Below, in pieces: positions 10,720 through 17,106 of a DNA stretch of 20,000 bases. The first letter of the stretch is position 1. Each line of letters opens with the position of its first letter. The notes beneath the pieces were generated by a model. That model was not told the DNA's origin. It was given only the letters and a program-made list of their open reading frames with translations, and did no database searches. Source of the DNA: Reclinomonas americana ATCC 50394 (lineage: Eukaryota); contig PS015022.1 of NCBI GenBank assembly GCA_048213135.1, positions 447,959-467,958 of the forward strand. Direction: 5' to 3'. The position numbers and the translations under genes are program-made.

Positions 10720-12433
10720 ATGCGCCATGAGTTCCCCTCACTCCAACGACCGTTGCTTGTCGTGTTAGTGCTGGCCGTCCTCGTGTGTGCCATCGTGTTC
10801 TTTGTGGTCTCCTCTCGTGACACCTCCACAGTGCACTCGGAAGAACCTCGTCGACCTGTCGCATCCGTCGCAGCTCACGTTGCGTTCTTGCTGCTTCTCA
10901 AGCATGTGTGTGTACCTGAGGCCGACGACATGCACGTTGCAGAACTCGTGTTTCCATTTCACGCTCTCGTCGGTGGCCTCGTTGAGTGCCTTTGACAGTG
11001 GTGGCGGTCTGCTGGGGCACGGTGTGTGTCGCGAGCCTCTGCCACAGGCCATGACAAGCGCAGAGCGCGCAGTGTGCATTGATCGCCGAGCTGGGGCCTT
11101 GGCGAGTGAGCGAGAGGCAGGTGTGGTCGGGCTGACGCACACTGCCAGTGTCATGCTGACGCCGATGTTTGTGGCGGGGGGGCATGCGGAGGAGGTGCCG
11201 ATCGTGCGCTTTACGATGCTGGTGTGGCCGCCGTCTGTGGATCAGCACGTCAGTGGGTCGTTGTTGTCGGGCGCTGGCGCGTGGGATCCGACCACCTCCA
11301 TGTTCATGCAGTGGGTGCTGCGGAGTTGCGCTGCTGTTCTTGCCCCCCTTGTGCCCACCCGCGTGCTCACCTGCGTGAGGGCAGATGCTCCCGAAGGGGC
11401 GTTGGTGGTGGATGCTGGGGCGCATGTGGGCTACTTTGCGCTGCTGGCCACGCATGTTGCGCCGCGATCGACGCGCGTTCTTGCGGTGGAGGCCTCGTCG
11501 GCCAACTTGGCGCTCTTGCAGCGCAACATTGGTCTCGTGTGATTCTTTTGGAAGCACTTTCGGTATTGCTGGTGGCTGACCTTCTCACAGTGCGCAGCTC
11601 GCTGGCGTCGCGGGTGGTGGCCGTGCACGGGATTCTCAGCGATCAGTGCGCCGGACCCGAACAGATTCTCGTGCCGGCCGACAAGTCGGAAGCCAACATG
11701 GGCGCTGGTCATGTGGCGATTGCGCAGCACGGTGGCAGCAGCAGTGGTGGTGACGAAGGCGAGAGGTACCGCGCGCCTCCTTCTTTCACCTGCCGGCGCC
11801 TCTGCTCACTTGGTGCAGTGTTCCCGTGTTCACCGTCGATCAGCTGGTCGGCGACACCGACTACGTGTCCCTGCTAAAGGTGGACGTCGAAGGAAGTGAG
11901 GCGCAAGTTCTGCGAGGCGCCCTTTCGCTACTGCAGGCCGCCAGTCGACGTGCGCCGTTCTTGGCGTTGGAGGTGAGGAAAGGAAGCGAGCGATTGCACA
12001 CGAGTCTTGCCTTGAACGCCCCGTCGCAGATCTCGCCACGCAAATTGTGCGCGCGCGACTGCAGCGCCACCGAACTCGTGCGGCACTTGTTGTACAGCGG
12101 ATACCGCGTGTTTGAAATCGAGCGACTGTTCGAGGGAGAGGTGTGCGCGCGCTGCAGACTACCGTCGTCTCCCACCCCTCGTCTCACTTCCCCGCCCTGC
12201 AGGAACCTCAATCGCAGTATCGCGGCTACCCAGCACCAGCCTGCGTGCACCGCTGTACCGCCTGCCGACCTGTGGCCGAGGAGTACCGGTGGCACGAGAT
12301 CACCACGCACCGCATGACAGCGTGGATGCTGCGTGCTCGTGTCACCGCCTCCCTCGACATGTACGCCGTCGACGCCCGTCACCTCCCCGACGCCACCGAC
12401 TGGTGCACGCGCGCAGCCATCCATCAACGATAG
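10720..12433 (+). CDS. FkbM-family (Methyltransf_21) SAM-dependent methyltransferase with an N-terminal signal anchor; multi-exon
   Basis: N-terminal hydrophobic LLVVLVLAVLVCAIVFFVV. Motifs: VVDAGAHVGYFALLA (motif I), VLAVEASSANLALLQRNI, TVDQLVG..VSLLKVDVEGSEAQVLRGA, LALE|ISP, L..GYRVF. Stop TAG at 12431-12433. Confidence 0.85.
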
Positions 12434-12943: not shown

Positions 12944-13014
12944 GAGTGTGAGTAGAGAGTGAGAGTAAGGAGCGAGCATGTTTGTCTCCGTCGTGTGTGG
13001 ATGTGTGTTGCGAG

Positions 13015-15484
13015 ATGGGCAGTCAGCACTCTCGACTGAAGCCTGTGATTGGCGCCGCCAAGACCAGTGTTCTTGGGCTGGAAGGCTGCGGGAAGACGGC
13101 GCTCTTGCATCACCTTGTCACGTGCGGAAATACTCATTGTTCTCACACCAAACACACACGCAAGAGAGAGAGAGAGAGAGGAGGGAGAGAGACGACCAAG
13201 ACAGACGCATGCATACGTGTACACACGAGAGAGTGAACGTGTGTGCTTGTGAGTGTGTGAGTGAACGTGTGTGAGAGAGAGAGAGAGGGAGCCTGCTCAG
13301 CCTATGGCGTTGGTAAGGCGCGCCTTGTCATTCCGATCTCTCTCTCTCTCACTCTCTGTTTGCTTTGTTCAGTGATGAGTTTCTTGCACGACCATCGCGC
13401 GACTACTTTGTGGATGCCTTTCATAATCTGGGTCCGGTGCACAAGTTTCAGGGATCGTCTTCTTCGTCGGCATCGTCGTCGAGAAGGCCGATGAGTGGTG
13501 GTGCTGGTGGAGGTGGTTCTTCGTCGTCGGCGACTACGCAGCGGGATTTGGTGTTGCAGCTGCAGGTGGGTGGTGGAGGAGGGCGAGAGGGAGAGGGACG
13601 AAGAGGTTGTACATCTTTCTCACCTTTGCTTAGACAGTCTCCCTTTGCTACTCATCGCACAAAAGATAGAGACGAACAGGATGCAGGGCACGTTGCTTTC
13701 CCAGTCTCTCTTTTCTTCGCGTTGCGCTCTTCTCAAGCAGGATGCAGCTCACGCGAGAGAGAGAGAGAGACGAACAGGATATGTGCCCTTGCTTTCTCTT
13801 TTCCGTTCTCTCTCTTCGACTGCTCTGTTCATTCAGACGGCGTTGCACTCTTCTCCCTCTGCTTCTCGTCGCACAAAAGAGTACGTGCCTTTGCTTCCAC
13901 TCTTTCGTTCTCACTCTCACTGCGCCTGCTTTGCGTTATTCCTTGAGCAACGGCGTTGCTCTCTTCTCTTGTGTTCCACCCTTGGTGCTCGAGAGAGAGG
14001 TCTATCCTCTCTGCATCCACGCTTGCAAAGTAATCAAGAGCACCATCGCCCTTTCTCCTGCGTCTGCGCCGCACTACTCTTTGAGAGTGTTTTCGAGACG
14101 ATGTTGCGCTCTTCTCCCTTCTCTACTCATCGCACACGAGAAGAAAAGAGGAATAGGAAACGTGTTCTTTCTCTTGCGCACTCTCGCTCTCTCTCTCTCT
14201 CTCTCTCTCCTCGTCTACTTCGCTGCACTATTCCTTGATTGTGTGTTCGAGTCGATGTTGAGAGTTTCATTTTTTCCTCTCTGTGGTCTCCCCCAAACTC
14301 ACTTCCTCCCTCTTCCCCCCTCTTCCGTGTCGCAGGATACCTCAAGTTCTATACCCCGGCATGTGCTTCGCTTGTTTTCACATTTCGCTCCTTCTCACGT
14401 CGTAAGTGCAGACGTAGCAGACGTGACGACACTCAAGGCCAAGTGTACCGGCTCCAGTTGCATCCTCATATGCTTCAGCGTTGTTTCGTGCTGCGAGACC
14501 ATGGTTGCGATTGTTCGTTTCCGTCTCTCACTCACCTGCTTCTCGATACAGGAGGGTCACACGTCATACGAGTTTGTTCGCAAATGGGTGCGTGTTCTTC
14601 TGTACACGCGTGAGTTTGAGAAAGAGAGAGCGTCTCATGCACCCATGCAGCTCGGACCCAACACAAGGAAAACCTTTCCGCATGTGCCGGTGCTGCTAGT
14701 CGGCACCAAATGCGACCTGCGCGAAACTGTGGAGAACGAGGAGGTTCTCGTCACGCCAAAAGAGGTGCGCTCCTTTGCGTTTCTTCGCACAGTGCATGTA
14801 GGCTCACTTGCACTGTGCAGGCTCTGACACTCCGCGAGGACATTGGCGCGGTGGACTATGTCGAGTGCAGCGCGCTCACCGGACACAACGTGGCGTACGT
14901 TTTCCACCTTGCCGCGCAACTAATATGTCGACCGCCATTGAAGACTGGTTTGTGGGGAGTGAGAAAGAGTGTGCGCGCGCAAAGAAGCTTTTCTGCACAA
15001 AAAGAGTGATGGGTAGACACACATGGCAGGCACTTACATTGTCGTTCTCTGATGTCTCGCAGGGTTTGTGATCAAGGAGGGTCGGAATGTGAGGAACTGG
15101 AAAGGCCGCTATTTTTCCGTGGCGAACCGTGTGCTGCAGTACTACGCCGACGAGCAAGTTGCGTGCGGTTGCCTGACTCTGATAATGTGCGCTTCTCACC
15201 ACCGCGCAGATGACACTGCTCAAGGGCGAAATCGATCTCAGTCAGGCCACGGCCGTGATTGAGGAGTACGACGGGGAGAGATATCTTGCCACTCTCAACA
15301 TCCCCTCACAAGAACGCGTGTTCCGCATGTCGTTCCCGTCGGAGGCGGAGCGCAGCGAATGGGTGCAGGTTTTCAGATCGCAAATCTGTCAAGTCGAGGT
15401 GAGCTGATTATGGTGATTGTGGTTGATGATCGGGTTGCTTACCGTGGGCGCGCACAGACAAAGGCTCCCCTAGGGGGCGTGTAG
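13015..15484 (+). CDS. Atypical Rho-like small GTPase fused to a C-terminal PH domain, with an N-myristoylation motif; multi-exon
   Basis: Exon 13015-13121: MGSQHS...SVLGLEGCGKTALL (P-loop). Exon 13373-13565: DEF...FVDAF...LVLQLQ. From 14336: DTSS...CILICFSV. Exon 14552-14587: SYEFVRKW. Exon 14651-14764: PHVPVLLVGTKCDLR. Exon 14821-14947: IGAVDYVECSALTGHNVAYVF...PLKT. Exon 15063-15157: GFVIKEGRNVRNWKGRYF...LQYY. Exon 15210-15398: KGEIDL...ERSEWVQVF. Last exon 15458-15484 (or stop at 15407 if unspliced). Confidence 0.85.
13600..14300. repeat. Degenerate intronic repeats in the long GTPase intron (13566-14335)
   Basis: Recurrent gttgc(g/a)ctcttct and ctactcatcgcac elements, interspersed with (GA)n/(TC)n. 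Confidence 0.55.
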
Positions 15485-16032
15485 AGGCGAAAGTGTATGT
15501 GTGTATGCGTGTGTGTAAGGGTGATTGGTACAAGAGTTGTGCAATAGTTGGCTGCTGGTCGCACGGCGCGGAGTTGTTGTTCGCTTCTTTGTGTGATTAC
15601 ACTCGCGGAGCAACTGTCGAGAAAACGTCGACGCTGTCATCAAATCCTTACCCATGCAGTCCCCACGTCTATGGATCTTGCAGTCATACACTCATACGAA
15701 TGTTGTGCAAGACAACAAAGAAGGAGGGTGTTCCGCGCGATCTAGATTTAATTTTTCCTTTTTCGCCTCTGGCTCCACTCCCTCCTTTTTTTCTGTCGCC
15801 TCCAGTTGCTTGACTCTCTGTACGCACTCACGCTGTACGAGCTCCTCCCGTTTTTTTAATTACTTTCTTTCACACCCAGGGAGTTTGTGTTCAGTGACTT
15901 CGGAGATTCTCGGTCACGGGACACAATCACACACTGCACACGCACACGCAGAACGCATTCTCTTCTTGCGCTCCTCCCCCCTCCCTCTCCCTCTCTCTTT
16001 CCCTCTGCCTTCCTCTCCCTTCCCTTGCCCCA

Positions 16033-17106
16033 ATGGCCTCCGCCTACCACTTTCTGTCCATTCCAGAGTGGCAGGCCCACGGAGTGCACTCAGTCGCCTT
16101 CACTCCCGACGGTCAGCACGCTGTGAGTGGTGGCAGTGACTGCGCAGTGTGCGTGTGGTCGCTATCGACCGGGAAACAAGTGCGACGAATGGAGGGACAT
16201 ACTCATGTCGTGGTATCGGTCGCCGTCTCCTCCGACGGTCATCTCATCGCGAGTGGCAGTGAGGACTATACAGTACGAATCTGGTCACTGGCGAGCGGTG
16301 AAGAAGTGCGACGGTTGGAGGGACACAGTCGGACGGTTTATTCTGTCGCCATCGCGCCTGATGGTCAGCACATTGTGAGCGCGAGTCCGGAAGACCGTTC
16401 AGTGCGGGTGTGGTCTGCGGCGAGTGGCAAACAAGTGTACATACATACAATTATGGTGTGGGGCGTCGCCGTCACCCCCGATGGTCTGCACTTTGTGAGT
16501 GCTGACAACGACCGCACAGTGCGAGTGTGGTCACTGGCAAGTGGCAAGAGGGTGGGTCGATTTGAGGGCCACGCATCGTTGGTGGAATGCGTCGCCGTCT
16601 CTCTCGATGGTCAGTGCGTTGTGAGTGGGAGTTGGGACAGAACAGTGCGAGTGTGGTCGTTGACGAGCGGTGAGGAAGTGCGACAATTTGTGGGTCACAC
16701 AGACTGGGTAATAGCGGTCGCTTTCAATCCCGACAACCAGCACATTGTCAGTGGAAGCCGAGACAACACTGTGCGTGTGTGGTCGATGGCGAGCGGAGAG
16801 CAGGTGCGACGATTGGACGGGCACACGCGGTTGGTGGCTTCCATCGCTGTCACCGCCGATGGTCAGCGCATCCTGAGCGGGAGTGCGGACATGGCTGTGT
16901 GTGTGTGGTCGACGGCATGTGACCTCGCGCGCATCGACCTAGCCGAGGCGCGATCGGCGATGCACGCTGTCCGGGAGATGCAAGAAGGAGACGACGACGA
17001 GGCCGAGTTGAGATGCCTGCCGGAGATCGTGCTGCGATGCTTCATTGTCGAAGACGCGGCGGCTGTGCTTTTCCGCTGCTGCACGGACCCCGCGTTCTAT
17101 CTGTAA
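16033..17106 (+). CDS. Intronless WD40-repeat protein (7 repeats) with a ~60-aa helical C-terminal tail
   Basis: Continuous 357-aa ORF with seven GH..V.SVA..PDG..IVSGS.D.TVRVWS units. Confidence 0.95.
   Translation: MASAYHFLSIPEWQAHGVHSVAFTPDGQHAVSGGSDCAVCVWSLSTGKQVRRMEGHTHVVVSVAVSSDGHLIASGSEDYTVRIWSLASGEEVRRLEGHSRTVYSVAIAPDGQHIVSASPEDRSVRVWSAASGKQVYIHTIMVWGVAVTPDGLHFVSADNDRTVRVWSLASGKRVGRFEGHASLVECVAVSLDGQCVVSGSWDRTVRVWSLTSGEEVRQFVGHTDWVIAVAFNPDNQHIVSGSRDNTVRVWSMASGEQVRRLDGHTRLVASIAVTADGQRILSGSADMAVCVWSTACDLARIDLAEARSAMHAVREMQEGDDDEAELRCLPEIVLRCFIVEDAAAVLFRCCTDPAFYL

Follow-up and report, generated by a model that had tools for sequence, protein, structure and literature searches.

The locus considered here lies at positions 13,015–15,484 of a 20,000-nucleotide (nt) stretch of Reclinomonas americana ATCC 50394 DNA (contig PS015022.1 of assembly GCA_048213135.1, positions 447,959–467,958; "the window" below means this whole stretch). 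It raises the question of whether a Rho-type GTPase domain and a PH domain are joined there in one protein that starts with a possible N-myristoylation signal and has no CAAX box, and of how such a protein would behave. On balance, and with somewhat more confidence than doubt, we read the locus as one spliced gene of eight exons encoding about 320–340 residues, the product being a lineage-restricted and fast-evolved derivative of the Rho family, a pseudoGTPase anchored by myristate and by its PH domain. All splicing was deduced from GT–AG sites, intron phases and colinearity with family profiles.

At the junction of the two domains, exon 6 ends in ...LICRPPLKT and one base of a glycine codon; GT follows at 14948, the acceptor CAG ends at 15062, and exon 7 supplies the remaining two bases of the glycine codon and then FVIKEGRNVRNWKGRYF. 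A preliminary description of the locus proposed that the last GTPase exon splices in phase 1 into a PH domain at 14947/15063, and the predicted sites, phases and coordinates bear this out. Pfam searches made exon by exon place exons 5 and 6 at positions 102–124 and 131–160 of the 162-position Ras profile (PF00071), and exons 7 and 8 at positions 7–36 and 44–104 of the 105-position PH profile (PF00169; expect values (E) in Table 1), and the matches to both profiles run colinear across the introns. The linker between the G domain and the PH domain is about 8 residues long. A TGA at 15050–15052 closes the PH frame 4 codons ahead of exon 7, and this frame offers no ATG, so that the PH exon depends on a coding exon upstream of it. 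Left unspliced, the GTPase frame continues for 21 codons into intron 6 to a stop at 15007–15009, ending ...KTGLWGV...SAQKE. No Pfam family matched the opposite strand, the remaining frames at the locus or 15430–16136. To judge from these features a single gene is the most economical reading, and the earlier proposal of one Rho–PH protein is sustained, on inferred splicing, by the matching phases, the colinear Ras and PH profiles and a PH frame that has no start of its own.

The GT–AG model runs from 13015 to 15407 on the + strand and holds an open frame of 338 codons. All seven introns are of the form GT...CAG, with donors GTG or GTT and acceptors that lie behind pyrimidine-rich tracts. The GC content of third codon positions (GC3) is 0.64 in the model, against a GC content of 0.50–0.60 in the introns. 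The frame opens with the ATG at 13015 (MGSQHS), and between the stop codon upstream of it (12949–12951) and this ATG there is no other in-frame ATG. Exon 3 contains an optional mini-intron (14399/14402–14443, 42–45 nt) that would remove a 20-residue insert. For the segment 14336–14587 we scored 259 open GT–AG combinations against P0001, a canonical Rho protein that ends in a CAAX box and was the single database protein retrieved; a model using GTAAGT at 14402 with CAG at 14451 was rejected because it breaks the frame.

By its sequence, the G domain is clearly of the Rho family in its C-terminal half, and not Ras, Rab, Arf or Ran. An in-frame read-through of exons 3–5 gave 111 PDB matches at E ≤ 1 (best 0.0037), of which the best 60 are all Rho-family proteins, and in this search ILICFSVVS of exon 3 aligned with FLICFSLVS of Rac3. 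Exon 6 gave 155 PDB matches at E ≤ 10, the best 60 of which are again all Rho-family, led by ARAC7 (E 1.4e-5) and Rac1 (E 2.6e-5); Rac1 aligns over its residues 143–183, up to the onset of the polybasic/CAAX tail. Rac, ROP, Rho, Cdc42, Rnd3 and RhoU are the family members in these match lists, and in the Atlas exon 6 falls in Ras clusters at 0.96. Model residues 144–240 are identical to P0001 in 43 of 104 columns (41%) and are colinear with it across introns 3, 4 and 5, an agreement that speaks for the splice model as well as for the Rho assignment. The Rho insert helix comprises about 13 residues between beta5 and alpha4; the spacing from G4 to G5 in the model is 35 residues, and a 7-residue gap relative to P0001 indicates that the insert is probably shortened. 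The description "Rho-like" given previously thus stands for the C-terminal half, through the PDB matches and the 41% identity to P0001, and not for exons 1–3, which gave no GTPase match.

Exon 1 has weak generic P-loop matches only in Pfam (Arf, E 0.14; NACHT, E 0.06), exons 2 and 3 searched singly gave no GTPase match, and exon 3 alone had no PDB match. The resemblance to switch I is no better than chance, as 1242 of 2000 shuffles reach the same score. The DxxG glycine couples switch II to the gamma-phosphate, an established mechanism of the Ras superfamily. We looked for the five G motifs as G1 GxxxxGK[ST], G2 the switch-I Thr, G3 DxxG(Q), G4 [NT]KxD and G5 SA[KL], with roles as summarised in passages of PMC5593906. 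In the 338-residue model G1 (GLEGCGKT, residue 21), G4 (TKCD, residue 180) and G5 (CSAL, residue 215) are present and G2 and G3 are degenerate: the switch-I Thr is not recognisable, G3 reads DTSSS (residue 101), so that the DxxG glycine and the catalytic Gln are both lost, and DxxG is absent from the whole model. There are also two extra loops, a Ser/Gly-rich one of about 33 residues between beta2 and beta3 and another of 6–20 residues between switch II and beta4. A G3 of DTSSS without DxxG or the catalytic Gln therefore makes a hydrolysis-deficient Rho derivative probable, and we predict that the protein is probably atypical and unlikely to act as a normal switch. The preliminary description overlooked that G3 is DTSSS and that the model contains no DxxG; the G domain is more degenerate than was supposed there, and the likely mechanism changes with it.

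The P-loop begins about 11 residues later than in Rac, leaving room for an acylated extension. The N-myristoylation pattern (PROSITE-type) calls for Met-Gly, a small uncharged residue at position 3, Ser or Thr at position 6 and any residue but Pro at position 7. The predicted N-terminus M-G-S-Q-H-S-R (Gly2, Ser3, Ser6, Arg7) is a motif match to this pattern, and Gly2 is a putative site of N-myristoylation. At the C-terminus two readings can be drawn. Read-through of exon 8 ends in ...QVEVS with a stop at 15405–15407, and use of a donor at 15399 with an acceptor at 15457 replaces this by an 8-codon tail, ...TKAPLGGV, with a stop at 15482–15484. There is no CAAX box in the model, in the alternative tail or in the unspliced GTPase read-through, and no Cys-x-x-x-stop occurs in any + strand frame between 14940 and 16100. 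Two earlier claims agree with these observations: the MGSQHS start with Gly2 and Ser6 is present at 13015 and is consistent with a myristoylation signal, and both of the C-termini put forward exist and lack a prenylation signal, with no Cxxx-stop as far as 16100.

The PH domain occupies, as a complete domain, the place that the hypervariable region and CAAX box take in canonical Rho proteins. Exon 8 alone scores 27.7 bits against PF00169, for which the cut-off is 25.1, and its Atlas neighbours are PH clusters. Exon 7 has 19 PDB matches, led by TAPP1 (E 0.02), KIAA0053 (E 0.041) and DAPP1 (E 0.086), with PLEKHA4-7, GRP1/cytohesin-3 and Akt3 further down a range of E 0.02–1.4; several of these neighbours are readers of 3-phosphoinositides. 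A basic K-x(n)-[KR]-x-R stretch in the beta1-beta2 loop is a signature of PH domains that bind 3-phosphoinositides, and exon 7 carries K-x8-K-x-R in its beta1-beta2 region. This region would thus appear to resemble PH domains of the 3-phosphoinositide-binding type most, which gives a lead to the lipid specificity. Where the preliminary description spoke of a phosphoinositide reader, the PH domain is complete by Pfam and the resemblance in type appears at weak E values.

Table 1. Exons and introns of the predicted Rho–PH gene, with positions in the window
Feature	Positions	Strand	Description
Exon 1	13015–13121	+	Start codon, MGSQHS (Gly2, Ser6, Arg7); P-loop GLEGCGKT at 13075–13098; ends in phase 2
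Intron 1	13122–13372	+	251 nt, GTGCGG...TTCAG; (AG)n microsatellite present; the exon 1 frame meets a stop within it
Exon 2	13373–13565	+	Putative switch-I region without recognisable Thr; Ser/Gly-rich low-complexity insert; beta3-like LVLQLQ; ends in phase 0
Intron 2	13566–14335	+	770 nt, GTGGGT...CGCAG; (CT)n and C-rich repeats near the 3' end; internal open reading frames without Pfam match
Exon 3	14336–14482	+	Degenerate G3 DTSSS (14336–14350); beta4 ILICFSV
Intron 3	14483–14551	+	69 nt, in frame; alternative donor at 14480; removal gives colinear alignment to P0001
Exon 4	14552–14587	+	36 nt; ends ...SYEFVRKW
Intron 4	14588–14650	+	63 nt, in frame, GTGCGT...TGCAG; colinearity with P0001
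Exon 5	14651–14764	+	beta5, G4 TKCD (14705–14716), then a probably shortened Rho-insert region; Pfam Ras E 8.8e-4
Intron 5	14765–14820	+	56 nt, GTGCGC...TGCAG; colinearity with P0001
Exon 6	14821–14947	+	G5 ECSAL (from 14863); helix alpha5 through LICRPPLKT; ends in phase 1; Pfam Ras E 0.011
Intron 6 (GTPase/PH junction)	14948–15062	+	115 nt, GTTTGT...TCGCAG
Exon 7	15063–15157	+	PH beta1-beta3; basic K-x8-K-x-R at about 15074–15109; Pfam PH E 0.026, PH_11 E 0.012
Intron 7	15158–15209	+	52 nt, GTTGCG...CGCAG; PH profile positions colinear across it
Exon 8	15210–15407	+	PH beta4-beta7 and C-terminal helix; stop at 15405–15407; Pfam PH E 4.1e-6

Intron 2 stands out by its length (770 nt against 52–251 nt for the other introns). 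By eye, a motif of about 100–190 nt recurs in it as several degenerate copies; Tandem Repeats Finder (TRF) reported no such long repeat. In exon 3, about 30 codons after the in-frame DTSSS, a string resembling a canonical G3, DTQGQ, is found on the + strand in another frame (14428–14442). It was rejected as the true G3, being inside the optional mini-intron and included by no open GT–AG model, and it is either a chance occurrence or a relic.

Searches for relatives used single exons or the intron-containing read-through of exons 3–5, with reduced sensitivity. This 143-residue read-through, of which about 40 residues are translated intron and lower the sensitivity further, had no match at E ≤ 0.001 among 1.84 billion representative proteins. 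In a word-indexed search set to "longer" it yielded 111 candidates, none at E ≤ 0.01, and in one set to "near" 7 candidates and one match, the canonical Rho P0001 at E 4.4. Exon 6 had 4 candidates with the "longer" setting, none at E ≤ 10. No relative was found in metagenome contigs scanned with exon 8, or in metagenome, viral and prokaryotic genome contigs scanned with six peptide patterns from the read-through, three of which derive wholly or partly from intron. An exact or near copy is absent from the protein collections searched, and a local tblastn found no second copy within the window. The gene is either lineage-restricted or comes from an unsampled lineage.

Several of these points weigh against reading the locus as a single functional Rho–PH gene. 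The N-terminal 143 residues have no significant GTPase similarity beyond the P-loop, one-third of exon 2 is of low complexity, every splice site is predicted from the DNA, and the alignment with P0001 has its single 7-residue gap precisely in the Rho-insert region, where the insert is probably shorter here. The putative myristoylation signal is a match to a motif that, by our own estimate, about 1–2% of random N-termini would fit. The matches that suggest the PH type are weak throughout (E 0.02–1.4), and the best PDB match of exon 8 (E 0.6) is not significant. As neither an orthologue nor a paralogue was found, the locus could be young, decaying or mis-modelled.

That the locus is a decaying or non-functional copy, or an over-interpreted model in which a Rho-derived pseudogene lies beside a PH exon, is in our judgement unlikely. 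It would account for the degenerate G2 and G3, for the low-complexity inserts, for the lack of any relative at E ≤ 0.001 in the 1.84 billion representatives or of an exact or near copy in the protein collections, and perhaps for DTQGQ in the other frame at 14428, and the assembly is a draft with N runs. Against this, the eight exons hold an open frame of 338 codons bounded by canonical GT–CAG introns, G1, G4, G5 and the whole PH domain are intact, GC3 exceeds the GC content of the introns (0.64 against 0.50–0.60), and DTQGQ lies within the optional mini-intron, where no GT–AG combination brings it into frame with a better score. It is a little less probable again that the architecture is as we propose and the G domain nonetheless a working switch, with unconventional catalysis, its own guanine nucleotide exchange factor (GEF) and GTPase-activating protein (GAP), and with the PH domain and myristate serving for localisation only. 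The intact G1, G4 and G5 would suit this, and GTPases with divergent G motifs may hydrolyse GTP, the RGK family (class iii) being an example in passages of PMC5593906; but the DxxG glycine, the catalytic Gln and a recognisable switch-I Thr are all missing, and Rnd proteins, with milder changes in switch II, are already non-hydrolysing according to the same passages.

The limits of the gene may also be drawn otherwise. Production of a CAAX-less small GTPase reading into intron 6 and of an independent small PH protein we hold to be very improbable. The unspliced GTPase frame does stay open for 21 codons before its stop, and an ATG at 15009–15011, followed by G and then GT, might form a 4-nt first exon which, spliced to 15063, gives Met-Gly-Phe-Val. 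This ATG, however, overlaps the GTPase stop and leaves no room for a 3' untranslated region (UTR), a poly(A) site or a promoter; a coding exon of 4 nt and an intron of 49 nt are needed; the PH frame has no other start; the Gly codon that the phase-1 junction rebuilds falls precisely on position 7 of the PH profile; and the GTPase would still be without a CAAX box. To a longer gene, extended from a GTGAGC donor at 15399 to an in-frame acceptor at 15951/15952 and so into the WD40 protein of 16033–17106, we give, if anything, even less credence. No other donor in the locus has as good a consensus, and the acceptor, CACGCAG at 15951, keeps the frame, which then stays open along a linker rich in Pro, Ser and Leu as far as the WD40 open reading frame (ORF), situated 630 nt downstream on the same strand. 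An acceptor is in frame by chance in one case out of three, however, and the linker is a translated (CCTCTC)n microsatellite in front of a good ATG at 16033, with the look of a 5' UTR or promoter; a stop comes 2 codons after the donor at 15399, and the nearer acceptor at 15457 yields the short tail.

Under the reading that we prefer, a single gene for a Rho-derived pseudoGTPase with a PH domain, the following mechanism can be proposed. G1, G4 and G5 are intact and nucleotide binding is therefore probable; guanine nucleotide would probably still be bound, whereas GTP hydrolysis would be poor or nil, as in class ii pseudoGTPases of the Rnd type, and the protein would have no role as a timer driven by GEFs and GAPs. 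Membrane attachment would depend on two weak anchors acting together, a co-translational N-myristate and a PH domain with a beta1-beta2 loop like those of TAPP1, DAPP1 and GRP1. Without a prenyl group the protein should escape extraction by RhoGDI and would therefore stand outside RhoGDI control, and local phosphoinositide levels, together with expression, would determine its output in place of a GTP cycle. We infer nucleotide behaviour, acylation, lipid binding and GDI independence alike from the sequence. A bolder and rather doubtful extension is that the gene is the first known member of a class of Rho derivatives not described before, in which a PH domain takes the place of the hypervariable/CAAX tail, the GTP switch is disabled, and the protein is a myristoylated, RhoGDI-independent scaffold gated by 3-phosphoinositides.

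Rho proteins are the textbook case of prenyl-anchored switches chaperoned by RhoGDI. If this proposal is true, it shows that Rho signalling can be turned from a nucleotide timer into a detector of lipid coincidence, in a eukaryotic lineage that has been little sampled. A natural Rho derivative in which a PH domain and a myristate replace the prenyl tail and the DxxG/Gln machinery is lost would extend the documented "membrane-anchor tinkering" of Rheb, Arf and Rab GTPases to the Rho family, and would offer a natural experiment on a Rho fold without a GTP cycle or GDI control. Its practical value is limited for now, the gene being an orphan whose expression is predicted.

The surrounding DNA has a GC content of about 50–64%, intron-bearing genes and frequent (AG)n/(CT)n microsatellites. 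Two runs of N (3346–3392 and 8617–8701) mark assembly gaps, flanked by long homopolymers and low-complexity sequence. Downstream of the Rho–PH locus, 16033–17106 (+) is a single-exon ORF of 357 codons encoding a WD40 beta-propeller of seven very similar repeats (Pfam WD40, E 9.4e-68, in 7 stretches), with a (CCTCTC)n tract directly upstream of its ATG; the exact sequence of this protein is absent from the protein collection searched, which may just lack the proteome of this organism or a protein with this start. The upstream neighbour, 10769–12314 (+), has weak matches to Methyltransf_21 (FkbM-type, E 1.3e-5) and to TRM5/TYW2 (E 0.0034) in at least two frames, and this methyltransferase-like gene is probably spliced. 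Farther to the left, the ORFs 4012–4614 (+) and 6466–6828 (+), about 2.4 kb apart on one strand, are identical at 50 of 91 aligned residues, and neither has a Pfam match; the two look like tandem paralogues from an unnamed family, to which the ORF at 5340–5708 is only faintly similar. The long ORF at 1126–2352 (-) has a match to the N-terminal domain zf-C3HC / NuBaID (E 8.2e-8), and a second piece of this profile is found in another frame at 1679–2116 (E 7.5e-4), which suggests an intron or a frameshift.

Among known systems, the canonical Rho, Rac, Cdc42 and ROP proteins are the best family for exons 5–6, with the signatures ILICFS, LLVGTKCDLR and ECSAL found here, and helix alpha5 ends where Rac1 has residues 176–183. 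They differ in that the R. americana protein has no CAAX/polybasic tail, has DTSSS at G3 and no recognisable switch-I Thr, and carries an N-terminal extension of about 11 residues with Gly2 as well as a C-terminal PH domain. Rnd proteins retain the DxxG glycine and carry a farnesylated CAAX box. As class ii pseudoGTPases they have a Rho fold that is degraded around switch II, and a similar outcome may be expected here; the present protein, in contrast, also lacks the DxxG glycine, and instead of a prenyl group it carries a PH domain and a putative myristate. In passages of PMC5593906 Rnd is characterised as a nucleotide-binding, non-hydrolysing pseudoGTPase regulated by localisation and expression.

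Multidomain relatives offer a second comparison. RhoBTB and Miro are multidomain Rho relatives without a classical CAAX box, and the present protein is like them in these respects. Pfam found no BTB, second GTPase domain, EF-hand or transmembrane segment at the locus or in its flanks, and no ArfGAP or ankyrin match in the exons, in the ORFs of 15430–16136, in 103 of the 144 window ORFs of at least 75 codons or in 14 more ORFs at the locus. With ArfGAP, ankyrin, BTB, EF-hand and a second G domain all absent, the protein is therefore not an AGAP, RhoBTB or Miro, and the preliminary description was right that the partner domains of these families are missing from the locus. AGAP/centaurin-gamma and its isoform PIKE-S have the same domain order, with a Ras-like G domain first and a PH domain after it; the AGAP G domain is without several G motifs in passages of PMC5593906, and PIKE-S is given in part of PMC4028201 as GTPase plus PH without ArfGAP or ANK. 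AGAP genes nevertheless encode ArfGAP and ANK, whereas the G domain here matches Rho and not centaurin, and PIKE-S, whose N-terminus is proline-rich, is a splice isoform of a larger metazoan centaurin gene rather than a stand-alone protein with a myristate.

The closest parallels in principle are GTPases that have exchanged their membrane anchor. In excerpts of PMC5869587, prenylation of Rheb is replaced via PX, FYVE or an N-terminal myristoyl/palmitoyl group and a Rab5 paralogue is N-acylated; parts of PMC8358228 describe, for kinetoplastids and choanoflagellates, Arf-like proteins whose PH domain is N-terminal, and parts of PMC13393502 a switch of microsporidian Rho to C-terminal palmitoylation. 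Common to these cases, as far as the excerpts go, is that N-acylation and/or an added domain that binds phosphoinositides has taken over from prenylation, for the most part in paralogues specific to a lineage. Those examples are Rheb, Arf or Rab proteins with N-terminal PX, FYVE or PH domains, or a Rho with palmitoylation only, whereas here a Rho-type G domain has a PH domain on its C-terminal side and a putative myristoylation signal at the N-terminus. Text searches of the literature, which did not cover architecture databases or the supplements of papers, found no published case of a PH domain placed C-terminal to a Rho-type G domain, nor a myristoylated Rho. The idea put forward earlier, of an unrecognised architecture in which a lipid anchor and a phosphoinositide reader stand in for prenylation, is narrowed: the principle is published for Rheb, Arf-like and Rab5-type proteins. 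Replacement of the anchor is thus already known, and what appears to be new at this locus, to judge from those text searches, is the Rho–PH combination, as a variant of it.

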